This document shows, piece by piece, positions 966 to 36,887 of a stretch of 36,887 bases of DNA. The position numbers and the translations under genes were made by a program. The stretch covers positions 1 to 36,887 of the forward strand of contig MU271325.1 in NCBI GenBank assembly GCA_021432655.1, in the 5' to 3' direction. The notes beneath the pieces are model-generated. The model did no database searches, was not told the DNA's origin, and worked only from the letters and a program-made list of their open reading frames with translations. Source of the DNA: Atractiella rhizophila (taxonomy: Eukaryota). Position 1 is the stretch's first letter. The number at the start of each line of letters is the position of its first letter.

Positions 966-2693
966 CTACACCAGCGACACCATCGCGACCACCGCCGCTA
1001 CCAAAACCATGAAGCCCTTTCCGACCGCCACCACACCCGCCGCCGAATTGCCACCCTGCTCCGCCTGGCTGCCCGTCGACTGAGTCGGCGCAGCAGGCGC
1101 GGCCGTCGTGCTCGTTATCGTGAGTGGAACGACGCTGGAGGAGGTGCTGGAGGTTGTGGGGAGGGAGGAGGTGGAGGTGGGGGTTGTGAGGTTGAGAGAG
1201 ATGGGGACGGTGGAGACGGCGGCGTAGGAGGAGGATTGGGAGGCTTCGTACGATTCGTCGTAGGTTGGGTTGTACGTTGTGGCGTTGGAGACGTCGCCGC
1301 AGGTGCCGGGTGTGGTGTCTGTACAGTTACCATTTACCGTTAGGACGTGATATTCATGTGGCGATTAGGAGAGGACTAACAGTAGAACCAGTGGTCAGCT
1401 CTTGAATCGCCTCCCAGACAGTTCGGGTCGGTAACAGAGTAAGAGCAATACTCATAATTCTGTCCAAAAGTCTAGCACCACCCAAACCAAATCAGCGCTC
1501 CTTACTCAGAAAAAGAACGAGGAAAGAGAGCGCACAGCATTCCCGCTCCCAAAAACATGGAATCCACCAAGAACATGCGTATAATCATCGCTCTCCGGAA
1601 TAGTCTGCGGTATCGCGTCGTCATTCGCTACCGTCCGCGTATTCGAGGATCCTTCAAAGAGCTTATTGAACAGGGCCGCGCCGGCAGGGTTGAAGACTCG
1701 CGGGGAACCAAAGGAGTGGACGGCGTGTGCGAGGTTCCGATACCCAAGGTCTACCGCGCCGATTTGTGCGACCATGGCCCCTGCACCACCAGCCCAATCA
1801 CGCCTCAATCACTTCCGCATCCCGATGCACGTGTGAAAAGAGAAAGGGGAGGACGAACCGAATCCGTGCCCCGTCATGCTCCAGATGTGCCCGTTGTACG
1901 TCTCGACCTCTTGCACGACGGCCATGTCGTTCGTCTCCTCTTTCACCTCTAGCCATGCCTGTAACGCTCCGGCGTGCGCTGTGCACTCTGGACAGCCGAC
2001 GTTGATGGAGGACAGGCTGGCGGGCGTCGCGTTGAAGTTTTCCCAGCCGTAGACGCCAGAGAAGACGACGACGGTCTTGTTCATTTCTCTACACAATGGA
2101 TACATCAAATGTCAGCGGTTCGGTCCAAGTTGGATCGCTGCGGCAAAGCAGGTGCGTAGGAGGAGATGACGAGAAAATGTCTCTTCTCTAATTCGACTCT
2201 CATCCCATCCTTCTTGCCCACTGTGCGGAGAAAGGGAAGAGAAGAAACTGACGGAACAACAGCTGCGTATCCAGTCAGACCGTGTGTAGGTGTTGGACCG
2301 AATTGCAAGATGACGGTAAAAGGCGCTTCGGTGCTGCCTGGGAAGTTGGTTTGGAGTCCAGCATCTGCATTCCAGCTCCGCATCAGCTGACGGTGACAAA
2401 ACAAGAGGGGGGGGCGTGCCAGTGAAGAAGTTGGGACAGGAGGCGAGGTATGCTCCGTTGTAGGCAGCCATGGAGAGGAAGGCATGGTATCGCTATTTCG
2501 AAGTTGACTGTAAGATGATGGAGAAGGAACAGGAAGGGACAGACGTCATGCCAGTATGGGGAGTCGGCTGAGTACACCATAGCTATTAGAAATAGAGAAA
2601 AGGGAGAAAGGAAAGCGCACCTGATGTATCTTGCCCCTTGACGGCGGCGAAGAAGCTGAGGGCGGAGAGGAGGATGGCGCGGCGGGACCACAT
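966..2693 (-). CDS. Secreted class-3 lipase-fold protein (multi-exon), Ser-less nucleophile elbow, Ser/Thr/Pro-rich stalk and putative GPI signal
   Basis: Spliced reading: signal peptide MWSRRAILLSALSFFAAVKG-QD, then SPYWHDRYHAFLSMAAY, GYAAVVPEMNKTVVVFSG, WSMTGHGFGAMVAQ, SFGSPRVFN, VANDDAIPQ, DYTHV, DHWFY. C-terminus GGNSAAGVVAVGKGFMVLVAAVVAMVSLV*. Motif order matches the Lipase_3 family. Confidence 0.85.
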
Positions 2694-3044
2694 GTCTGCC
2701 GACTGGACTAACTGATAATAATGTTAATGGATCGCAGAGGAGTGGATGGATGTCCGATGGGAGGGAAGGGTATTATAAAAGTAAAGAGAGTAGCTGCGTC
2801 GCAGTGGCTGTTTGTCAGATTGACGGGCCATGTCTGATCTATATTTAGCTGCTGAGAAAATGATCTCCCAACTTTGGAAGGTAGATTTAGTTCGGACGAT
2901 AGAGCACTCTTGGCGTAATTTTTGTTGTCCTCTGCCTCATATTAATCGACCATCGATATTCTGTCAATATCTATAGCTTGCTCTTCACTGAGAAGCTGAC
3001 ACTCTCTTGTCACACTACACTCTTTCGTTAGCTATTATAGCAAC
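2694..3044. promoter_or_regulatory. Compact divergent (bidirectional) promoter between the two lipase-like paralogues
   Basis: About 350 bp separate the two oppositely oriented ATGs (2693 minus, 3045 plus). TATTATAAAA at 2771-2780 reads as TATA-like on both strands. Confidence 0.5.
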
Positions 3045-4978
3045 ATGTTGGCGTTACTCTCCTTCCTTCTCCTCTTCCTCACTACCGCCCTCGCTCAGGA
3101 TGTATCAGAAGGTATTCTTCCACATTCTTTATTCTCGATGCCTCAGTAACTCATCAATGTCGCGACATAGAGAGCCCATACTGGCACGATGTTCGTCTCT
3201 TCTTCTTCTCTCCTCCTATTCAACAGCAACTAATTTGTGGACATGGAACAGAGATACCATGCATTCCTGAGCATGGCAGCCTACGACTACTCCTACCTCG
3301 AAACCTGTCCTCTCTTCTTCACCGGTTCGTCCTCCCCTCATCACCTCCATCCCTCCATCCTCCCAAAATCATTTCCATAACCCAACCCGAATCCACAATC
3401 ACATGCTAACATGATGTCACATACGACGGGTTGGGTTGGTATTATAGAGGAGGCGAAGCAGAAAAACTTCCCTGGAAACATCGAACCTCCGTTCACCGTC
3501 ATCATTCAGTTTGGACCGACTCTGAAGCAGGGAGTGAGCGGATATGCGGTCGTTGTCCCGTGAGTCTTCTCCTTTTTCTTCTTAGAGTTGGGTCGCCCGT
3601 TTGCTCTCTTTGTTTCTGGTGCGCGCTTCTTGGGTGGGAGGTGTGGACGCCTTCTTGTCAATGTGCCGGTAAAAAGTGAGAGAGCTGAGGGATGGAATCG
3701 GGTGCTTCCACACTCTCACGACAACTCAAACACCCCCTGTTCAAACTATAATAGTGAAGACTACACCATGTTACAACTAGCGATTGTGCAAGAGAGCTAC
3801 TAGTCCTTCCCACGAACCCATTACATTCAATCGCCGAAACTAAACTGACCATTCCTCGCGTTGCAACAGAGAAATGAACAAGACCGTCGTCGTCTTCTCC
3901 GGCGTCTACGGCTGGGAGAACTTCGACGCCAACCCCGCCTCCCTCGCACCTTTGAACGTGGACTGCGACGAGTGCACGGCCCATGCTGCCGCCCTCGAGG
4001 CTTGGTTGGAGATCAAAGAGCTCACGGCTGATATGGCTGCTGTTCAGACTGTCGAGAGCTATAATGGTCATATTTGGAGTTTGACTGGTCATGGGTTCGG
4101 TCAGTTCCTCCTTTGATCCTTCATGGAGGATTAACTGTGCTGATTCTTCTTTTCCTGTATTATAGGCGCAATGGTCGCTCAGGTCGCAGCTATCGATTTA
4201 GGGTACCGTAATCTCGCTCATGCCATTCACACCTTTGGCTCTCCAAGAGTTTTCAATCCTGCCGGAGCGGCCTTGTTCAACAAACTGTTCTCTGGGTGGG
4301 AATTTGCCTCTTTCCTGTTATTGAGCGAATGCAGGACTGAAAAATGGATAGGACTTCGAATACGAGGACAGTGGCTAACAACGATGCGATCCCTCAAGTC
4401 ATTCCTGAGAGCGAGGACTATGTGCACGTCCTTGGCGGATTCCATGTGTTTGGGAGTGGAAACGCCGTTCGTTTCTTTCATTCACTATCCTTTGGATATT
4501 GCTGATGGTTTTATTTCATCGCCAGACGTATGGACAAAACTACGAATATTGCTCGTATTCCGCCTCGGACCCTAACTGTCTAGGAGGCAATTCACGAGCA
4601 GATCACTGGTTCTACTGTTCGTCCCTCCCTCCTCCACTCCCTCCACTAGCTTTTGTCTTATGAATGGAAACAGACACGACGCCCGGGACATGTGGGAACC
4701 AATACAACGCTACGACCTACAACCCAGCATGGAACGAAGCGTACGAGCAAGCCCAAGCCGCGTCATACGCGACCGTATCCACTACGCCGATCAGCCTCAA
4801 CATGACTGCAACTCCTGGGCCGCTTCCCACCAGCACTGTGAGCGAGACTAACCCGACGGCTGCACCCGAGAAAGGAGGTGCAGGACAGGATAGCTCCGCT
4901 GGTACGTTGAAGGTTGAGGGTGTGATGAGGTGGGGTGGTTTGGCGGCGATGGGAGTGGTTGGACTTGCATTGCTTTAG
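3045..4978 (+). CDS. Secreted class-3 lipase-fold protein, paralogue of 966-2693, Ser-less, putative GPI-anchored
   Basis: Signal peptide MLALLSFLLLFLTTALA-QD, then SPYWHDRYHAFLSMAAY, MNKTVVVFSGVYGWENF, WSLTGHGFGAMVAQ, TFGSPRVFN, DYVHVLGG, DHWFY. Thr/Pro-rich tail and hydrophobic end GGLAAMGVVGLALL*. Intron positions match the paralogue. Confidence 0.85.
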
Positions 4979-10987: not shown

Positions 10988-11887
10988 GTCTCTCTCACGC
11001 TTGCACGGGTCTATTACTCTCTCGAACCCGTCGTGGCTCTCTATCATTATGTATCGTTTTGTTGTTGGATGATTGATTCTCGGCTGCGTTCCTGAATGTA
11101 TCCCAACCACGCTTTATCACTAAACAAATGACATGCTCAATAAATATTCTCCGTTGTAATACATCCTAGCCTCTTCAACTCATTAAAAACGAAGTCATGG
11201 AACAGACCTTCCGCATTGTAATATGCTTCACTCGTCACGTTAGTTGACTATCAGATCATCAGATTCCAAGGGGTGGATATTGCAGTGCTGTGGATTTCAA
11301 CTTTTTTCCACGGCGCCAGTAACGTCTTACTGGCAGCCACCATGGAAACGTGTCCTGTCATTACATTGCTCTATGTATTTAATCGTTGGTTTCTATGCAA
11401 ATTGGTTCAGCTACATCAGCGTAATGGTTCCTTTTACTTGACACAGACAGGCAAACAACAGCGCGTTCAATGCACGTGACTTCGATCACGACAAAAAGAC
11501 AAAAAGGCAAGGTATCCTTCTTATATCCTCTTGGTCCCTCCCACGCCTGCGGCTTTTGGCCACCAGCTCATTGTATCAAGGTAACTCAACAGGTCAGTTC
11601 GGCTTCACTCTCGACGGGCGAGAAAGCGGAGCGGGAGGGAGACTTCCTGTTCAGGATCGTTATCCCATCTGGTCCCGGACGTTGTGAGATTCCTTTAGGG
11701 CTGGCAGTTAAAAGTCACTCACTCTCGCCCTGTATCAGTACCACCCGCTCCGATTCGCTTCAGCCTTTGGTTATTCAAGACGGTTATTGACTATTGTATC
11801 GCTGTCTGGTTGGGTCTACAGGTACTTTTCATAGCACCCAAAGGTACGCTTTCTCGTAATTTGTATTGAGGGACAAGGGATAGACAA

Positions 11888-14800
11888 ATGTTTGGTTTTG
11901 TGGTGGTCATAGGAAGAAGAACAAACACGATGAAGATTTACTCACCTTCCAATACACGGACGAACGACCTTTTCCACCCGCACATCTCCTCTTCCGCGAC
12001 AACGTCACCCCTCGCTTTCAATGTTGGACTATCCACGCCCCTTCCGCCGAAGCCGTACCGAACTAGGATAAGGAAGCCTTCACAAACTCCTTCGCCACTG
12101 TCGGAGGATTCGGTTCCTGGTTTAGGAATGGCTGCCCAGACTCAAAGTGAGGAGGAGGTAGAGGATGTGTTTGGGAGCTCGCCCATTGGATCGCTAGGAA
12201 GCGGTGAAGAGAGGAATACATCCATCCAGTCCGAATCTGGCGTCGCAACTATTCCGTTCCAGGCTACACGTGCCAGGAATACATATATATCTGTCCAGGC
12301 ACCGACTGCACGCCTTGCTTCTGCGTTTACCTTCGGTTCTTCGCCCCCTACGAGATCGTCACAGGGACCTGCTGACAGATCTGAAGAGGACGCGCGAGCG
12401 GCGACATCTGGAGAAGAGATAGCGCAGGCGTCCGACTCTCGCTTTGGACTTCCCACTCCTCCCTCGAGCCCAGATTTGAAGGGAAGGAAATTGAGGCCGC
12501 TCCCTTCGAGATCTTCAAAGGCGGCACAGGCGCAAAAGACACCCAGCGGCAAGGATAAAGGCGGGAGTGGGAAGGGCACTGGTGAGAAGACTCCTGCATC
12601 CGCTTACGTTTCTGGGCTCCATACTCCTCCGTCCACCCCAACGAGGACGTCGAATCTCTCTTCTAGATCTGAGACGCCGGATAATGCTCAAAAGGTGCAC
12701 ACTGATGAGAAGGATGTGAGAAAGCCCGAGGAAAGGAGCCCCACTGGAGCGATCAACACTCCACCGTCCACTCATACTACGACGTCAAATCTCCCTTCAA
12801 GGCCCTCAAAGCAGCCCAACAGACAGGGTCCTGAATCTGCATCGACATCGGCTAGAGCAACGTTCACGAATGCTAACGAATTTGGATCCGCTTTACCTAT
12901 TCCTCCTCCAACGCGGACAAACGGTACAATTTCGAATGCTGATGGTAATACTTTCAAGTTCGTCTTCCCTACCAACCCCCTGCCCACAAAGCCCTCCAAG
13001 GCAGCTCCCGCAGACTCGAGCAGGAAGGAAAGTGAAAAGGTGGAAGCGAATGGGGGAGGTGGGAAAGGGAGACAGAGACCTTTCGACTTCACTACTGCAT
13101 CGAATGTGCCGACAACAACGAACACAAAGACGACGCCGTTGGGGAAGTATTCGTTCAACATTGGCTCTTCAACAGCCCCTCCTCGATCTTCGAATGGACC
13201 TGAAAAGCCCGCGCCGAAAGTTGATCTGAGGTCTACTTTCATGAATACTCCGCCCAACAACGGCGCAGAGAAGATCCCTGCCCCCGCCCCCGGTGTCAAA
13301 ACTACTTCACCTTATCCTCAAACGAATAACTCTCGGTTCACTTCGAACATCCCTTCCACTGGTGCTCCTCCTGCTGCCCAATCTTATCCCCAGACGAACA
13401 ACTCCCGTTTCACCTCCAATGTTCCTACGACTCCTCCTCCGGCCGCTCAGTATCCTCAGAACAACAACTCTCGCTTCACGTCCAACATTCCTGCCGGATC
13501 GTCGAAACCTCCGCCATCAGAGAGATGTAGACGGCCTCCTCCTCGAGCGAAGCCAAGCTATGTTAGTTCTTCGGATAATAGCTCATCAACGTCTTCGGAC
13601 TCAGACTCAGATAGCGAGGGTCCCACTTTCCGTGGCTGGCGTAAAGCATCGTCTAATAATACTCCGCCTCGTAACCCTTCCTCTTCCCGTCCCCCTCCTT
13701 ACAGTCCGCCTCCGTCATATTCCTCTGCGCGCCCCTCCGCCTCTGACAGAGCTTCTCCACCACGTAGCAAGCCGTCTAGGGATGTTTTCACGGATGAGCA
13801 ATTGATTGCACATGCTGAATCTGGTTATTGCGCAGGAGTTGGGACGTCCACGAATCGGATGTGCGGTAACCGTTCGACCACGAGGTATTGTTATCATCAT
13901 GGAGATCAAAGATACACGCCGCAGGGAGAGAGGTTACATGCTTATTTTCAACGTCAACGGAACTCTCAACCTGCCGATGTCTTCACGGACGAACAGTTGA
14001 TCGCACATGTTGCAGATGGCTTTTGTGCTGGAGTTGGGAGGACCACTAATCGCATGTGTCGTAACCGTCCGAGCGCCAGATATTGTTACCATCACAGAGA
14101 TCAAAGTCACACTCCGCAGGGAGAGAGGTTGAAGGCTTATTTTCAAAGTACCTCGTCGAACACGTCCAGAGGGCAGTTTCGCGCTCATTTCGAATCGCCA
14201 AAGTCGGGGAATGAAGAAGCGATTTCCCGCTCAGATAATGAAGCAATTGCCCATGCGGAGCTCGGATACTGTGCGGGAATGACGCTGAAGAACAATTTGT
14301 GCATGAAAACAGCGCAGGTGTGGAAAGGATCGAAGTATTGCCATCTTCATGGCGATCAAGCAAATAACTCACGGGGACGGAGACTTCGGAAGTATTGGGA
14401 CGAAAAGAAGAGGAAGAGTGAGGAGACGAAAGAGCGAGAGAGGAAGAGGAAAGAGGAAGATGTCCGCAAGAAACATGCAGAGGAGGAGGCGGAGTACGAG
14501 AGAAGAAGGAAAGAGAAGGAGGATTGGGCGAGGAAATGGGAGGAGGCTAGGAGGAAGGAGGAGGAACAGGAACGACGGGCTGAGCAAGAGAAGGAAAGGT
14601 TCTGGCAAAAGTTCGAGGAGGATCAACAGAGGGGTAAGAAAGAGCAAGGGCGGCAAAGGTACGCCATCCTTTTGGGCCAAACAAGGTTGCTCAAACCTAT
14701 TCACAGCTTCCGTTCCACAACCTCTGCGCCACGGGCTGCTTCCATGTCTAACTTCTCCATCAATCTGGTCGAATTCTACACCCAGTCCATCTCGGCACCT

Positions 14801-15127
14801 CTCAACGCTTCACGTCCTTTCTCGAAAGTGACGTGGCCAGCCTTGGATACCGGTCGCCCGATTGCCCCATCAGATATCACTGATGAAGCTGTGCGCGCCT
14901 TCTTTGAACGAGTCAAGAAGTGCATCCAGGACGAACAAGCGAAGACAAGAGATGCCACGAAGAAGGCAAAACTGGCGAAAATGGTCACTCAGCTTGCTAA
15001 AGAGACCATTAGGAAGTTCCATCAAGACCGTCTCGAATCTTTGGCAGCCAAAGTAGATGGGGTGGAGAAGGACGAGCTCAAGAGGGTGTTGATTGTCATT
15101 AGTCGGGTTAGCACGGAATTTAAGTGA
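11888..15127 (+). CDS. Intron-free ~1000-aa protein: disordered N-terminus, 3 C-C-C-H zinc-finger repeats, charged coiled coil, C-terminal NFKBIL1-like/J-like domain (HQD)
   Basis: Uninterrupted 3.2 kb ORF (alternative starts at 11930 or 12128). Three IAHxxxGxCAG..C..YCxxH repeats, an E/K/R-rich helix, and a C-terminal VTWP..DITDEAVRAFF..IRKFHQDR..EFK*. Confidence 0.85.
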   Translation: MFGFVVVIGRRTNTMKIYSPSNTRTNDLFHPHISSSATTSPLAFNVGLSTPLPPKPYRTRIRKPSQTPSPLSEDSVPGLGMAAQTQSEEEVEDVFGSSPIGSLGSGEERNTSIQSESGVATIPFQATRARNTYISVQAPTARLASAFTFGSSPPTRSSQGPADRSEEDARAATSGEEIAQASDSRFGLPTPPSSPDLKGRKLRPLPSRSSKAAQAQKTPSGKDKGGSGKGTGEKTPASAYVSGLHTPPSTPTRTSNLSSRSETPDNAQKVHTDEKDVRKPEERSPTGAINTPPSTHTTTSNLPSRPSKQPNRQGPESASTSARATFTNANEFGSALPIPPPTRTNGTISNADGNTFKFVFPTNPLPTKPSKAAPADSSRKESEKVEANGGGGKGRQRPFDFTTASNVPTTTNTKTTPLGKYSFNIGSSTAPPRSSNGPEKPAPKVDLRSTFMNTPPNNGAEKIPAPAPGVKTTSPYPQTNNSRFTSNIPSTGAPPAAQSYPQTNNSRFTSNVPTTPPPAAQYPQNNNSRFTSNIPAGSSKPPPSERCRRPPPRAKPSYVSSSDNSSSTSSDSDSDSEGPTFRGWRKASSNNTPPRNPSSSRPPPYSPPPSYSSARPSASDRASPPRSKPSRDVFTDEQLIAHAESGYCAGVGTSTNRMCGNRSTTRYCYHHGDQRYTPQGERLHAYFQRQRNSQPADVFTDEQLIAHVADGFCAGVGRTTNRMCRNRPSARYCYHHRDQSHTPQGERLKAYFQSTSSNTSRGQFRAHFESPKSGNEEAISRSDNEAIAHAELGYCAGMTLKNNLCMKTAQVWKGSKYCHLHGDQANNSRGRRLRKYWDEKKRKSEETKERERKRKEEDVRKKHAEEEAEYERRRKEKEDWARKWEEARRKEEEQERRAEQEKERFWQKFEEDQQRGKKEQGRQRYAILLGQTRLLKPIHSFRSTTSAPRAASMSNFSINLVEFYTQSISAPLNASRPFSKVTWPALDTGRPIAPSDITDEAVRAFFERVKKCIQDEQAKTRDATKKAKLAKMVTQLAKETIRKFHQDRLESLAAKVDGVEKDELKRVLIVISRVSTEFK
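13313..13492 (+). repeat. Three in-frame copies of YPQ[T/N]NNSRFTSN[I/V]P
   Basis: Copies start near 13313, 13385 and 13451. The peptide is near-identical while third codon positions differ. Confidence 0.9.
13781..14400 (+). repeat. Three ~55-aa Cys/His domain repeats
   Basis: DVFTDEQLIAH...TPQGERL occurs twice (from 13781 and ~13976), with a more diverged third copy from ~14234. Confidence 0.9.
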
Positions 15128-29204: not shown

Positions 29205-31185
29205 ATGCACTCTTGCCTCTTTTCTCTTGTGTGGCTTTTTCTATCCAGTAGGCTGACTACGGCAGTGGAACCATCGGGCTCCGTCGAAGGTGGCTACCTA
29301 TCGAACATGGTGACGCTGAGGAGAGAAAATTTCACAGAGACAATCGCAAAGGATGGATTGACAGTCGTCAAGGTGTGCAGTCTCTCTCTAACATATTGGT
29401 TGCACTCAACAATCTGTACTAGTACTTCGCTGATTGGTGCGGCTATTGCCGTGGTTTGTCCTTGCTTTTTCGCCTTAGATTTGAAACTCACAAAGAAAGC
29501 AGATCTCGCTCCCGCCGTGAGCTTCTTCGTCCTTCTCCGTGTAAAGGTCTCAACGAAGTACAGTACGAAGAAGCCGCCTCCATTCTTAAAGACGACTCTA
29601 GAATAACAGTCGCGTCTGTTGATTGCGAAGCAGACGCTGACCTTTGCTTTGAGCAATCGGTTTTCGCATTGCCGTTCGTCATTCCTTTGCCTAATGATCC
29701 TATTCTTAATCGAAGAATATAAAGAACGATCAAGCTATTCCATGGAGGCGAAGGCAAGGAGTACAACGGCACGCGTTCTGCAGGAGATATCGCATCATAC
29801 GCTCGACGGTACCTGGAACCAACGCTGTCTGTTCTCACCGCAGAAGACGAATCATCTTTTGCGAGAAGTGACGACGTTGTACTTGTCGCACGTTTAGACC
29901 GGACATCGACAACGTATGATGAAGATGAAAGGATCTTTGGGCAGTTGGCGCAAGAACAAAGAGAATTTGTTCGATTTGGAGTCGTTCCGCTTTCTGATTC
30001 AAGTAAAACAAAGGACTTCACCATTTATCAGAATTGGGACAACTTCTCAGCTTCATTGCAGCTCGATCGTGGAGACAAGATGGAAAAGGAGACGTTAGAA
30101 ACATTCATCACGAGGGAGAGCTTGAGAGTTATGGGAGAGATCGAGTGGGGAGATATAGAGCCTTTAAAGGAAGCGAAAATGCCGGTTGCTCTATTATTTC
30201 TGCACGGTGCGGCGGAAGAAGAGAAGGAGAGGATTGAAAGCATACGTGAAGTAGGCAAGCAGTATCGAGGCAAAATAAACTTTGCATGGTCCAATTCCAC
30301 AAAGGTAAGCAGGTCACTAGATTATTGGTGAGGCGCACATATTGTCTGCGACCAGAACCCCGGCCTGCCTCGCTCCGCGAATGTCCAAACGTCTCGAGAC
30401 GCAATCTCAATCATCGACTTTTCGTCCCCTCTAGTTCAACCCGCCACGCCGAAATACCCAATGGACAGATCTCTCCCAGTTGACGCTTCCTCCGTTGCCT
30501 ACTTCGTCTCGCGGTTCTTAGGGGGAGAACTTCAACCACACATTCGGAGCCTACCAGTCCCTAGCGAGGCGGAACAGTCTGATGGAGTAAGGACCATCGT
30601 CGCGGACAGCTTGGAGCAGGAGTTGTGGGGAAAAACTGAGGATAAAGACGTTCTGATCATGTTTATGGCCCCGTGGTGTACGCTCTTCCTTCTTTGTGTG
30701 TCAGATAAAGTTGATGACTTATGTTATGTGTAGGTGGACATTGTAAGAAGCTGAAGCCTGTATATGAGGAACTTGGTCGTCTGTACTCCAATGAAACTGT
30801 ACGCCTCCTCACTCTTTCCTCCTGTTCTTCATTTATTCACCTGAGACATTATAGGACAAGATCATGATCTCTCGTTACGACGCTCACAATAACGATATCC
30901 CAACCTCGCTCGGTTTTCAAATCCAGAGTTATCCAACATTCAAGTTCAAACCTGCGGGTTCAAAAACCCTCCTCGACGTGAGTGTTTCCGATAAGTATTC
31001 AGGTACATTGTTGACTAGGGAAGATACAGTACGACGGTGGGAGAGAAGTCAGGGATTTTGTCAGTTTCATTCAACAGAGCGCAGCGAATGAAATCCAGCA
31101 TCCAGTGATTCCCGGCTCTGAACAGGTCGGAGATGGGACATCAAGCGCTGAAGGAGAAAAACGGAACGCGAAGGATGAGCTTTAA
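29205..31185 (+). CDS. Protein disulfide-isomerase family protein (a-b-b'-a' type), ER-retained
   Basis: Signal peptide MHSCLFSLVWLFLSSRLTTA; YFADWCGYCR; ASVDCEADADLC; FMAPWCGHCKKLKPVYEEL (split by an intron); DAHNNDIP..FQIQSYPTFKF; C-terminal KDEL*. Confidence 0.9.
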
Positions 31186-31231: not shown

Positions 31232-34200
31232 TTAGTCAATTCGATCTACCTTGTACATCTTGGTAGTCGTCTCCTGATCCATACCCGTATAGTCGATGAC
31301 GTCGTCCACCCTGTACATTTTTGTCGTTACTTCCATTTCATATCCCTTTTGGCCCTTGGACAAAAGCGTCGTTGACTCTGCTTCATGCGGAGCCGGGACC
31401 TTAAGACCCTTTTCTTTCTGAGCTGACCCAGCGGAGCTGGCAGAAGGCACACCTTTCGGTTTCTCCAGCTTCGTCTCCGCCTTCTTTTTGATCTCCGCGA
31501 CTGGTGCCTTCAGTTGACCACCGCTCTGCTTTCCATCAGGGATGAGGATGAACTCCCTTTCTCCGCCTTTTCCGGCTAATTTGTCGAGGATGAAGTATCC
31601 CTTCCTTTCAAATTGGCATCTGTCTCCTTCTTTCATCCCTTCGACGTTCTGATCCGTCCATCCGGTGACGGAGAACTTTGTGGATGGATTGACGAAGTCG
31701 ATGAGCTGGTCTTCCTCTTCCAGTTTCTTCTTCGTGATGAGGTAATCGTAATCGTGGTAGGTAACAGAGAGGAGAGGATGCTCGGGGGACTTGATGAGCC
31801 AATGAACCTTCTTCTTGGTCTTCTTGAAATCGCCTTCCAAATGCAATTCCAAACCGAGAGAGGTGACGACTCCGGAACCGTCTTTCTCAATGGTCCGAAC
31901 ATACGCATTGCCCCAATCCATGAGAGTGATCTGCATCATCCCCACTTTTAGCTTTCTGATAAATATTAACATCGAGTAGACGACGCTCACCTCCTCATCT
32001 TTGGCGAACGATTTAGCATCATCCTGGTCGAACCAAATTTCCTCTCCATAGACCGTCTTCTTGGTTCCCAGACTCTCATTCTTCTTATGCTTCAAAACAT
32101 CCTTCACCTCCGTCCCCTTCACGCCGCTGACCTTCCCTGGTACCCTACGTCAAAGACGATCAGTAACCTTGGCAAGACCAGCTGGAAAGAGTATCACATA
32201 CGCGTTCTCCTTTGGGATGAACCAATAGCGAGGGACGACAGGGTCGATGAGCCTCTTGTTGAGAGACCACAACGACTCCCAATCCATGTTCACAAAGGCT
32301 TGTGAGGGCCCTTGCTGTAGCATGAAGAGTTTGAGGGCTTCAACGGATAGACCTCGTCGCTTGATACCTGTCACAAAGGGATATCAGCCATATCCATCAT
32401 CAATAAAAGAGTGCTGGCTGGGAACGAACCTCGAACAGTTGGGAAACGGGGATCATCCCAGCCATCCACCAGGTTCTGTTCAACGAACCACTTGAGCTTC
32501 CTCTTCGACAGAAGGGTATACACAAAATTGAGCCTCCTGCACCGATATTGATCAGAATCTAGAATCCATTTCTCCACTCCATGGAAAGATACGAGGACAA
32601 AGGAAAGTCGTACCCAAAATCCCAGATCTGGACCTTCCTCAATCCGACAGCCTCCAACATCCACTCGTATTGAGGATTGCGATCTCGGTATTCGTTTGTC
32701 CTCAGTGCGTGAGTGATGCCTTCGATTGAGTCCTACCAACAAGTCTCAACCTTTCGGAACAGAAAGAATGTGGATGGTGACACGCACAACGATAGGACAC
32801 GCAAAATCATACGTAGGATAAACCTTCCACTTCTCCCTAAACAGCATAGATTAACCCTCTCCTTTCAAGATCAACCAGAAGCGAAACGTACCCAGTCCGA
32901 TGATGCGCCTGCAAGTTTACTCTATAGATGACGGGATCCCTTAAAGCTTTGTTGGGGTTGTCAACAGACAATTTGGCGCGGAGACACCACTTCCTTCCCT
33001 CCTCCGTTCCCTCCTTCATCTCCTCGAAACGCGCTAGGTTCTCTTCGATCGTCGCATCTCGTCGAGCTGATTTCGTGCCATCGAATCGTTCCTTTTGCAT
33101 CTACGACCATTTATCCACATATCAGTCCTGTTTGAGTGAACGGTGCACATCGAGGGAACGGAGGCAAGACCTGTTCTTTAGGCGTATCGTCTGCGTACGC
33201 TTTTCCGTCCTTTATCGCCTTCACGGCGAAATCGTAGATCGTATCGAAGTGATCCGAAGTGTAAGATATCTGGTCTGGCGTCAACTCGAGCATCTTGATA
33301 TCCGCCAAGATGGAGTCCTGAAACTCTTCCTGTTCCTCCAATCAACTGCCGTTTCTTTGCAAGCTTGACTGAAGGAAAGCACCTTTTCATTTGATGGGTT
33401 GGTGTCGTCAAACCTGACTAGGAACTTCCCATCGTAGTGTCTCGCAAAGTACTCGTTTAGGATCGCCGCTTTCGTGTGTCCGATATGTAGGTATCTGCCC
33501 GCCGATCAGAGAAATGAGTGAGATGTATCAGAAAAGGAAGCAGGAAGGACAGACCCAGATGGCTCAGGTGGGAACCGAGTTACGACCTTACCCTTCTCTG
33601 CGCCATCCAGACCCAAATCAAACGAGGCGTTTACCTCTTTGTCCGGTTGAGAAGCAGCGTGCGATTTCTATTTGGGGAACATGAGCGAGAGCAAGAAGTG
33701 GACAGAGGAAAACAAACTTTTCCTTCGTTCCTCTTCTTATCCGCCTCCTTCAACACTGCCCCTCCATCGCAAGCCGCCTCTACGTAGCCCAACCACCTTG
33801 AGACATGTGGATAATTCGGACCTTTCAAGAGTCCTTGTAGGGGAGAAGAACCCTTGATCGTGCTCAGGACCAGGAAGTCTGAGGCTCCCAATCCTGAGGG
33901 AGAGGAGACGAAGGATCGTAAGGTGAGGTACTGGTCGAGGGCTGCGAGGAAGGACAGGGAAGATTCATAGTTACCAGGGGCGGTGGAGAGAGTGGTTGGG
34001 AGGGAGGAGCTGGACGGGGAGGGGAAGAGGGATTGGAGGACTGCGTCTGGGCCAGATTGTAGCTTTTCGCTGTATCAACGTCAGAATATCAGTTCTTTGT
34101 GCATCTGGCACTAAAGTGGAAGAGAAAATACAAACCCGGAAGAGGATAGGAGAGCAATGTCCCCTTCAAGAACCCAAGTCAGTTTCTCCTGCGCGCCAAG

Positions 34201-34275
34201 ATAGTAGACAGCGTAGAGAACCGCAATGGGAACTGAGGGCTTGATAGGCAGCTGGATCTTGTCGTACGAGATCAT
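31232..34275 (-). CDS. GUS1: Cytosolic glutamyl-tRNA synthetase, multi-exon
   Basis: N-terminal GST-like domain; [88 protein letters not shown]. Confidence 0.97.
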
Positions 34276-34482
34276 AATGTTGGTCGATCTCTTCGTATCA
34301 AAGATGCAAAATTTGCAGCATAGATGAGAATGGGTGACTCACAGATAACTTGAACGCTATTATGCTGCGGACAAATAACGGACCGCTTTTTCTTCTACAA
34401 ACAGCAATTCTTATGTTATAGCAAGTCGCACTTGAATTCCTGACCAGTTTTCTTGCTTGCCGTTCCCGGTCCGTTCCGCTCA
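33709..34482. repeat. Segment A copy 1 (GluRS exons 1-2 plus upstream sequence)
   Basis: Direct repeat of 35077-35875. The first 186 bp are identical; the rest is diverged. Confidence 0.95.
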
Positions 34483-35076
34483 CGAAATATCATTCGGTGG
34501 TGGATTAGTAGTCTCTGGGGACAGTGCTAGGGCTTCCACCAGCACTTCGTCAGCAGGTTCACATCCACGCAAAGATGCCCTTTTTCTCTTTTTGCATTAT
34601 TTGTGCCTCTGGATAAGTACCATGCAGAACGCAAAATACCCCACGATTGTTGGGAGACTTGCTTCCTTCTGTCTCTGCTGTCTTCGCGATCGATATTCAT
34701 GTGTTTCGAAAGATGCACCACCACAGAACTTTCGATTATTTGTGTGCCGGTTTGGATCACGTGATTGCAAGAATGTTCATCAACCTCTGCTGCTTCGAAG
34801 AGCCCCATCCAACTCATCTGGCCGACGCGTCTTGCTCCGCTCTGCTGATATCTTATCTATATCCTATTTTCTCGGACGACCTGCGATAGAAATAGGAAGA
34901 CCTTAACTGATGAACGTGGGAGCCAAATCGTTCACGTTCGACCACCTGCTCCATGGCTTGCTTCTACCATTCACCAAGCTCTTTTGGATCTGCAAGCTTC
35001 ACGGAACTTTGATTAATTGGTTCGAGATGGGTTGAAATTGATGAGCACGTTCAGTCTCCTGCTGGGTACTTATCAT
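34483..35076. repeat. Segment B copy 1 (~590 bp, non-GluRS sequence)
   Basis: Direct repeat of 36302-36887 with substitutions and small indels. Confidence 0.95.
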
Positions 35077-35644
35077 AAAACAAACTTTTCCTTCGTTCCT
35101 CTTCTTATCCGCCTCCTTCAACACTGCCCCTCCATCGCAAGCCGCCTCTACGTAGCCCAACCACCTTGAGACATGTGGATAATTCGGACCTTTCAAGAGT
35201 CCTTGTAGGGGAGAAGAACCCTTGATCGTGCTCAGGACCAGGAAGTCTGAGGCTCCCAATCCGGAGGGCGAGGAGACGAAGGATCTTAGGGTGAGGTACT
35301 GGTCGAGGGCTGCGAGGAAGGACAGGGAAGATTCATAGTTACCAGGGGTGGTGGAGAGAGTGGTGGGGAGGGAGGAGCTGGATGGGGAGGGAAAGAGGGA
35401 TTGGAGGACTGCGTCTGGACCAGATTGGATCTTTTCGCTGTATCAACGTCAGAATATCAGTTCCTTGTGCATCTGACACTGAAATGAGAAGAGAAAATAC
35501 GGACCCGGAAGGGGATAGAAGGGCAATATCTCCTTCGAGAACCCACGTCAGTTTCTCCTGCGCCCCAAGATAGTAAACGGCGTAGAGAACCGCAAGGGGA
35601 ACTGAGGGCTTGATAGGCAGCTGGATCTTCTCGTACGAGGTCAT
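34999..35644 (-). CDS. Truncated GluRS duplicate encoding only the N-terminal GST-like domain (short gene or young pseudogene)
   Basis: ATG 35644, intron 1 intact (gtccgt...atacag), frame open through KRNEGK. Homology ends 9 nt into intron 2; read-through gives a novel tail ending in TGA at 34999. Confidence 0.7.
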
Positions 35645-35875
35645 AATGTTGGTCGATCTCTTCGTATCAAAGATGCAAAATTTGCAGCAGAGATGATCAT
35701 ACGTGACTCACAGATAACTTGAACTCTATTATGCTGCGGACAAATAAACGACCGCTTTTTCTTCTACAAACAGCAATTCTTAGGACAAGTTGCTCAGTGT
35801 CCCGTCTGTTATATCAAGTCGCACTTGAACTACTGACCAGTTTTGTTCCTTGCTGTTCCCGGTCCGTTCCGCTCA
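35077..35875. repeat. Segment A copy 2
   Basis: Direct repeat of 33709-34482, with a short extra stretch near 35783-35810. Confidence 0.95.
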
Positions 35876-36301
35876 ACAAAGGCTAGGAACTTAGTTACCA
35901 AAAGCTGGCCAATCCTTGGCCTACCAGAAACCCATCCCAAGGTCTTCTACGCTGTAACAATGTGAACGATTGGATTGACTAGGATAAATATCTCTTCATA
36001 TGTGGCGCCAAAGCGGTCGATAACGTGACAAAGGAAGCTCGTATTGCGACGGCTGATTCTGATCGAGAGAATTGAAGGATCAGATGTACCGCCGTTCGAT
36101 CGAGTGATGGAATGTGTTTTCGAGGATGGAGTTGGGGTCTGGAAGAGATGCATCTGAGAATGCGAGCAAACATTCAGTTATTCAACTGTGTAGTAGCTAG
36201 CTCCATTGGAAATGTGAGAGGGGTTTCTGTTCAGTTGTATCCATTTCTAACAAGTTTTCTCCCAGAGTCGTTGAACGTACATCTCCGACATCCCCAACCA
36301 T

Positions 36302-36887
36302 CGAAATATCATTCGGTGGTTGATTAGTAGTCGCTGGGGACAGTGTTCTACCAGCACTTTGTCAGCAGGTTCACATCCATGCAAAGATGCCCTTTTTCTC
36401 TTTTTGCATTATTTGTGCCTCTGGATAAATACCATGCAGAACGCAAAATACGCCATGATTGTTGGGAGACTTGTTTCCTTCTGTCTCTGCTGTCTTCGCG
36501 ACCGAAATTCATGTGTTTCGAAAGATGCCACACAGAACTTTCGATTATTTGTGCGCTGGTGTTGGATCACGTGATTGCAAAGAATGTTCATCAACCTCTG
36601 CTGCTTCGGAGAGCCCCATCCAACTCATCTGGCCGACGCATCTTGCTCCGCTCTGGTGATATCTTATCTATATCCTATTGCTCGGACGACCTGCGATAGA
36701 AATAGGAAGACCTTAACTGATGAACGTGGGACCCAAATCGTTCACGTTCGACCATCTGCTCCATGGCTTGTTTCTACCATTCACCAAGCTCTTTTTGGAT
36801 CTGCAAGCTTCACGGAACTTTGATTAATTGGTTCGAGATGGGTTGAAATTGATGAGCACGTTCAGTCTCCTGCTGGGTACTTATCAT
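36302..36887. repeat. Segment B copy 2 (runs to the window edge)
   Basis: Direct repeat of 34483-35076. It ends at ...gggtacttatcat, the sequence that precedes segment A in the first unit. Confidence 0.95.

Follow-up and report, generated by a model that had tools for sequence, protein, structure and literature searches.

The last 3.2 kb of a 36,887-nt stretch of Atractiella rhizophila DNA (the window, analyzed here at its full length) hold the start of the GluRS gene twice, and the outer copy comes with upstream DNA, a start codon, a spliceable intron and an open frame of its own. This raises the question of what the copy is: a gene in its own right, a 5' module duplicated onto a full-length gene, or the second allele of a single locus that was written out beside the first during assembly. 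An initial annotation of the letters had proposed either a selected free GST-like module that could compete for Arc1, or a fragment of a diverged allele captured by recombination.

Tandem anatomy of the GluRS 5' region

A repeat search and alignment reveal a 1.37-kb unit that is present twice, head-to-tail, at 33709-36887, in repeat families covering the gene part (D1, D2 and D8, at 98%, 92% and 89%) and the upstream part (D3, D5, D6 and D7, at 94-100%). Read on the minus strand, each unit begins with ~590 nt of upstream DNA (B in unit 1, B' in unit 2) and runs through the 5' region, exon 1, intron 1 and exon 2 of GluRS to the ninth nt of intron 2. Unit 1 (33709-35076, 1368 nt) thus holds, in window order, 9 nt of intron 2, exon 2 (33718-34069), intron 1 (34070-34135), exon 1 (34136-34275, encoding MISYDK...), the 5' region and upstream DNA B (34483-35076). 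Unit 2, which we refer to as the copy (35077-36887, 1811 nt), holds its 9 nt of intron 2 (35077-35085, minus strand), exon 2 (35086-35437), intron 1 (35438-35504, 67 nt), exon 1 (35505-35644, minus strand, encoding MTSYEK..., with its ATG at 35644), a 5' region (35645-35875, minus strand; allelic promoter or 5'UTR DNA in the reading favored below) that differs from unit 1 by a 24-nt indel, a 426-nt stretch that unit 1 lacks (35876-36301), and upstream DNA B' (36302-36887). This is the anatomy that the initial annotation had described by eye, with the upstream region, ATG, intron 1 and the whole of exon 2 retained and a break 9 nt into intron 2, and the alignment bears it out.

The two units align over their full length with 66 substitutions, and nearly all of their difference in length is the 426-nt indel between the two versions, the rest being the 24-nt indel and several small ones; at 36345, for instance, unit 2 is without 7 nt (CTAGGGC) that are found in unit 1. 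No obvious target-site duplication accompanies the 426-nt stretch, and searches of this stretch for a gene or RNA returned no Pfam, tRNA or Rfam match. There is likewise no tRNA or Rfam family in 33000-36887, and no Pfam match in the B region. The units abut at 35076/35077, and unit 2 ends on the final base of the window (36887), a point that corresponds by homology to the junction 35076|35077. No N occurs anywhere in the window.

Downstream of unit 1, GluRS continues with intron 2 (33668-33717, minus strand, 50 nt, GTTTGT...AAATAG), only the first 9 nt of which (33709-33717) lie within the repeat, and with eleven further exons (exons 3-13, 31235-33667, minus strand), which encode the catalytic and anticodon-binding domains and run to a TAA stop at 31232-31234. 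This is the single full-length gene, and its exons 3-13 yield a product of 757 aa with either pair of first exons. The intron-1 donor is GTCCGT in the copy vs. GTTTGT in unit 1, and the intron-2 donor GTTTGT is kept in the copy.

Open frame of the copy and divergence between the units

The codon count made by eye in the initial annotation proved exact: 23 of 164 codons differ between unit 1 and the copy, 17 synonymously and 6 non-synonymously, with no stop or frameshift, and translation reproduces the N-termini given there (MTSYEK in the copy vs. MISYDK in unit 1) as well as the tail ...NQLIKVP. The formal calculation that had been suggested as a check gives dN/dS of 0.11 and dS of 0.157 over these 164 codons. 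Such a low dN/dS is what would be expected of two functional alleles of an essential gene. The dS itself is high for alleles and counts against an allelic reading.

Read through without splicing at exon 2, the copy acquires a tail (34999-35085, minus strand, ...VCFMISTQQETERAHQFQPISNQLIKVP, then the stop) made of the 9 nt of intron 2, 75 nt of B and a stop codon at 34999-35001. This tail exists only if the abutment of the two units is real; in the reading favored below it is a product of the abutment and is absent from the cell.

Divergence between the units is uneven. Substitutions reach 3.1% in exon 2 and 9.3% in exon 1, the 5' part at 35645-35880 carries 14 substitutions in 236 nt, and the last 186 nt of exon 2 are without a single difference.

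Geometry of the unit ends

The positions at which the units end are informative about how the junction came to be. Over exactly 95 nt at their right ends, the units share the same sequence, with the last difference at 34981 in unit 1 and 36792 in unit 2, and a 96-mer begun at this last difference ends exactly at 35076 (the junction) and at 36887 (the window end), respectively. The unit ends being 96-mer ends, they match the ends of allele-specific paths in a de Bruijn graph with K=96. This value is the default of a widely used short-read assembler, and its use in the present assembly is putative. Across the junction, at the left end of unit 2, no difference occurs over 186 nt, while elsewhere the units differ by 3.1-9.3%. 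A heterozygous bubble must open and close in sequence common to both haplotypes, and a biological breakpoint need not.

The main rival to an assembly origin is a real tandem duplication in the source strain, in which illegitimate exchange between diverged homologues placed the promoter and exons 1-2 of the other allele upstream of the gene. Several features of the junction speak for it. The junction contains no N and shares only 2 nt ("AA") with the continuation that is found in reads, where the end of B is followed by TCCACCC... (a continuation without a match within the window), and such direct abutment with 2-nt microhomology is typical of real breakpoints and looks more like one than like a graph mis-join. 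A de Bruijn mis-join, by an assembler or scaffolder, would normally need an overlap of K-1, in contrast to the 2 nt found here. Moreover, the first difference is found 186 nt from the left end of unit 2 instead of 95 nt, which would fit a complete common path only with a further heterozygous site just to the left. Even with a real duplication, an assembler run at K=96 would come to a halt at 36887. Against this, a real breakpoint would need to have fallen by chance exactly 95 nt past the last difference, between flanks identical over 95 and 186 nt. Weighing these points together with the run data below, we regard a real duplication as unlikely.

Both versions of the locus in a DNA-like public run

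To date, 9 public sequencing runs match part of 34940-36740, and we compared four of them (X1, X3, X4 and X5). The data are Logan contigs from a k=31 graph, which show bridging and not absence, and the depths given throughout are mean word depths of contigs and not read depths.

Run X1 behaves as DNA, with introns and intergenic DNA covered evenly by 23 aligned contigs. Its version-specific contigs come in pairs of near-equal depth (104.8/110.5, 116.4/144.4, 141.2/155.6, 168.6/112.6 and 134.5/129.2), and its contigs that are common to both versions or that reach the flanks have depths of 221.8-254.8. Each version is thus present at about half the depth of the flanks and the two together add up to flank depth, in a sample whose genotype differs from that of the window. 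Among the 40 rows listed, out of 63, 35 variant letters have a depth above 0 in X1; 8 fall within the 426-nt stretch, which has no unit-1 counterpart, and 27 in the duplicated part, where 25 agree with unit 1 and two, at 35848 and 36455, do not. Given this match, X1 is heterozygous at the sites that distinguish unit 1 from unit 2, an observation that weighs against a real duplication.

The contigs of X1 also show where copy-type sequence leads. One of them (375 nt, depth 221.8) is identical to the window over 35077-35348, the copy-specific letters at 35263, 35269, 35286 and 35289 included, and runs on for 103 nt, the last 30 of which are window 33679-33708, that is, intron 2 of the main gene; linkage across the 186 identical bases rests in these contigs on the absence of branches and not on single reads. 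The X1 locus is therefore single-copy and heterozygous, and copy-type exon 2 precedes the ordinary intron 2. At the other side, the contig carrying the end of B extends for at least 255 nt into other DNA (TCCACCC...), in X1 as well as in X3. X1 contigs run straight through both breakpoint positions, and none among the contigs listed bridges 35076/35077, bearing in mind that contigs can drop variants; loose ends lie at 35077 and 35078. The bin depth at the junction, 238.2, is explained by the two abutting contigs alone, which give 238.3 ((17 x 254.8 + 46 x 221.8)/61).

Neither the junction in DNA nor a doubled copy number, by which a real tandem duplication would be recognized, was found in X1. 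With the junction unbridged, both breakpoints passed by contigs and the versions summing to flank depth, this run argues against a duplication. X1 also bears out part of the refuting outcome named in the initial annotation, a copy that is the same as an allele segregating at the gene's own locus.

X1 is not the source sample of the assembly, a candidate identity that we rejected on finding several window letters missing from it. At 35263-35269 its letters are of the copy type only, and at 35690-35702, 36321 and 36360 of the unit-1 type only; at 35848 and 36455 it carries letters of neither unit; and it holds two versions of the 426-nt stretch (depths 155.6 and 141.2) that are 7 substitutions and 3 indels apart. 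Bubble popping in Logan could explain some of the missing letters, but not the second 426-nt version nor the letters at 35848 and 36455. Since the X1 genotype differs from that of the window, the missing junction in X1 is no proof of its absence in the source strain.

We additionally observed two peculiarities of X1. At 36345 it contains two insertion-bearing versions, CTAGGGC (depth 129.2) and CCGGGGC (134.5), and the form of the window, which is 7 nt shorter, is in no listed contig. A third contig covers ~35580-35626, part of exon 1, at a depth of ~153.6 with the T of unit 1 at 35596; its 32 loose letters match 31015-31044 with 1 mismatch, ~190 nt past the GluRS stop. This joint (31044|35580) is of a deletion type and absent from the window, whose sequence from 31045 onward is without similarity to exon 1, and this third fragment counts against the allelic reading favored below.

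Transcripts of both versions in RNA-like runs

The sample kind of runs X3, X4 and X5 is unstated or guessed, and we read them as RNA-derived only from the absence of intron 1 in their contigs. All three skip 35438-35504 (67 nt, GT..AG on the minus strand, with the joint 35437>35505), which is exactly intron 1 of the copy, and their contigs thus come from spliced RNA. Their exon-2 contigs run into exon 3, the loose ends before 35086 being window 33638-33667 with intron 2 skipped. The last 186 nt of exon 2 being identical in both versions, such an exon 2-exon 3 contig fits either version.

In X3, one version (depth 259.1) matches the copy without a difference, and another (depth 207.1) shows 7 and 11 differences, which are the substitution counts between unit 1 and unit 2 over the same ranges. 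Both versions being present in spliced contigs without intron 1, both are transcribed, and the GTCCGT donor of the copy works. At the end of B, the depth of X3 is 0 in 34940-35000 and 24 in 35001-35061, and we do not count missing contig cover against read-through.

RNA-like contigs that join copy-type exons to exon 3 are also compatible with a real duplication. In that case, the exon-2 donor of the copy would splice over 1418 nt to exon 3, and the two promoters of one gene would yield two full-length GluRS isoforms that differ in their N-terminal GST-like domain. That the intron-2 donor GTTTGT is intact in the copy is in line with such splicing.

These runs yielded two side observations. At 35173 (33805 in unit 1), X3, X4 and X5 read G where both window units and X1 read A, a synonymous change (His CAT to CAC on the minus strand) that could reflect a strain difference or, less likely, editing. 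X3 further contains low-depth contigs of both 426-nt versions, and has CCGGGGC at 36345.

X1 and X3 carry different sample codes and organism labels, and both versions occur at ~1:1 in each. This recurrence bears on another explanation, in which the sequenced material was a mixture of two strains or individuals, each contributing one version, and the assembler stacked the versions in the same way as it would alleles. Everything that speaks for stacked alleles speaks for such a mixture as well, and the ~1:1 depth in X1 alone is compatible with a heterozygote and an even mixture alike. A ~1:1 ratio in both X1 and X3 is nonetheless easier to account for by a heterozygous or dikaryotic organism than by repeated even mixtures, and we consider mixing very unlikely.

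The public GluRS protein and its gene model

The only long protein that matches exon 2 of the copy is KAH8923332.1 (P0001 in our analysis), an Atractiella rhizophila glutamate-tRNA ligase of 757 aa whose 90% cluster has one member on one contig of 91,915 nt. It begins with MTSYEK and equals, residue for residue, exons 1-2 of the copy (its residues 1-164) followed by exons 3-13 of the window. Of its 757 residues, 6 are different in the product of unit 1, none of them beyond residue 77.

Placed on the DNA of the window, KAH8923332.1 would need an intron of 1418 nt (35085-33668) that holds the promoter and exons 1-2 of unit 1; the other introns of the gene are 50-105 nt long. This is exactly the exon chain that a real duplication would use, and it counts in favor of one. 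The protein may have been modeled on the same scaffold, in which case it is not independent evidence; if it lies on another record, it would directly show that the copy is the start of a full-length allele. Overall, a tandem layout that is real, with a captured 5' module spliced over 1.4 kb to exon 3 or, less likely, encoding a free GST-like protein, strikes us as improbable.

The GST-like domain and the question of a stand-alone module

Within the exon-2 peptide, residues 33-100 match the human EPRS GST-like domain (6iy6_E, 4.2e-5; 5a34_A, 6.6e-5; 5a1n_A, 6.9e-5). The four structure matches at E up to 10 do not include a yeast GluRS chain, and a Pfam search of the duplicated part found no family reaching E 0.01. 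In the full-length protein, Pfam identifies tRNA-synt_1c, tRNA-synt_1c_C and tRNA-synt_1c_C2, with the catalytic domain starting at residue 191. Homology to a solved synthetase domain, together with a position N-terminal to a class I catalytic core, places the segment among GST-like N-terminal domains. Domains of this type mediate the assembly of synthetase complexes, and the yeast GluRS-Arc1p-MetRS complex involves the N-terminal GST-like domain of GluRS.

With this background, the copy could be imagined as a genuine separate gene under selection, encoding a free GST-like module of ~190 aa that ends in the tail ...NQLIKVP and rivals GluRS for an Arc1-like partner. Such a gene would be in keeping with an open frame with ATG, spliceable intron and upstream DNA, with the dN/dS of 0.11, and with the homology of the exon-2 peptide to the solved EPRS domain. 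All the points raised against a real duplication apply to it too, and the same low dN/dS is expected of alleles. Furthermore, copy-type exons are joined to intron 2 in DNA (X1) and to exon 3 in RNA-like contigs, and not to the tail. No transcript carrying the read-through tail is present among the X3, X4 and X5 contigs, whose cover cannot show absence, and a search for stand-alone relatives among 85 candidate proteins of 79-254 aa gave 0 matches at E<=0.01, a negative that carries little weight. The selected free module that the initial annotation had put forward as a competitor for Arc1 accordingly finds no support, given that copy-type exons lead into intron 2 and exon 3 of the complete gene, and we think it extremely improbable.

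A probable second allele stacked beside the first

Taken together, these results lead us to conclude, with considerable confidence, that the copy is a second GluRS allele stacked by the assembler, i.e., that a heterozygous genome has given rise to a heterotype false duplication ("false exon gain"). We further infer that the source strain itself is in the single-copy, heterozygous state that X1 displays. Of the captured allele fragment proposed in the initial annotation, the identity as an allele stands; its capture by recombination is the less likely part, since the arrangement looks assembler-made, with units that end at 96-mer ends, a copy that ends with the window and no bridging contig in X1.

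In the mechanism we propose, the single GluRS locus of the source organism would exist in two diverged haplotypes, whether in a dikaryon, a diploid or some other state. From exon 2 through the upstream DNA, these haplotypes would be too different to merge (3-9% substitutions and the 426-nt indel), so that the assembler would have kept both and placed them one after the other at the contig end, making units 1 and 2 alleles and not paralogues. On each real chromosome, intron 2 and the catalytic exons would then be preceded by a single promoter, a single exon 1 and a single exon 2. Purifying selection, acting on two functional alleles of an essential gene, would account for the open frame, the intact splice sites and the dN/dS of 0.11. 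The public gene model, in taking the exons of the copy and reaching exon 3 over an artificial 1418-nt intron, would be a case of false exon gain.

The uneven and locally high divergence, with both classes at ~1:1 in X1 and X3, suggests old haplotypes that have been maintained together, for which a hybrid origin, a clonal dikaryon with conversion tracts, or linkage to a balanced locus are suggested as candidate sources. With regard to mating-type linkage of two old allele classes, a Pfam scan covering 56 of the 209 stop-to-stop frames that reach 70 aa, namely every frame of at least 100 aa outside GluRS and four in the repeat region, found no homeodomain or pheromone-receptor gene, in a window of only 37 kb in which exons are short. 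The only Pfam matches among these 56 frames were F-box-like, ARMT1-like (two frames) and thioredoxin-like.

The window contains other repeats, at a distance from GluRS. Two direct repeats of 174 nt each, 195 nt apart and 80% alike (13781-14149), lie inside a 1085-aa open frame (11870-15124, plus strand) that has no Pfam match. At 1373-4624, nested pairs of inverted repeats (1837-2090/3868-4121, 254 nt, 71%; 1373-1476/4521-4624, 104 nt, 80%) sit in a region of raised GC content with mirrored GC skew, which may represent an inverted pair of diverged genes.

These findings carry a caution for draft assemblies of heterozygous or dikaryotic fungi, in which a promoter, an open frame and mostly synonymous divergence are exactly what a stacked allele looks like. 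As a stacked allele has the appearance of a selected paralogue, a low dN/dS is no evidence for the latter. The artefact has probably already shaped public annotation, in that the sole GluRS model uses the exons of unit 2 and the MISYDK allele is without a model. What remains of value is a strongly diverged pair of GluRS 5' haplotypes that recur together in two other samples, which bears on heterozygosity in a little-studied lineage. A limited literature search found no published paper on the genome of Atractiella rhizophila, nor on the ploidy or nuclear state of the sequenced culture, and the acknowledgements of one paper, in its available text, call Atractiella genome data unpublished (PMC13347111).

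Comparison with known systems

The N-terminal part of the protein resembles the GST-like domain of GluRS and EPRS, as in human EPRS (5a34, 5a1n and 6iy6), in that residues 1-164 lie N-terminal to a class I catalytic domain. The anatomy of the window and the public gene model, taken by themselves, would give the picture of real tandem duplications of 5' exons, such as those behind alternative promoters or mutually exclusive first exons. Unlike in such systems, the DNA of X1 and the 96-mer geometry argue that the layout here is not biological.

The closest parallel is with heterotype false duplications, for which the available portions of two reports give as criteria half depth, haplotype-specific k-mers, adjacent haplotype contigs and false exon gain (Ko et al. 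2022, PMC9516828; Kelley & Salzberg 2010, PMC2864568). The second of these reports deals with duplicate contigs that overlap or are contained. As in the cases described in these portions, diverged alleles appear here as adjacent, paralogue-like copies, with about half the flank depth and haplotype-specific words in X1. The parallel extends to the doubled exons in or beside one gene that distort its model, and may extend to a contig end beside the duplicate, as unit 2 ends with the last base of the window. Our case differs from those presented there in that the copies abut without an N gap, in that the organism is a fungus and not a vertebrate, and in that depth was taken from X1 and not from the source reads.
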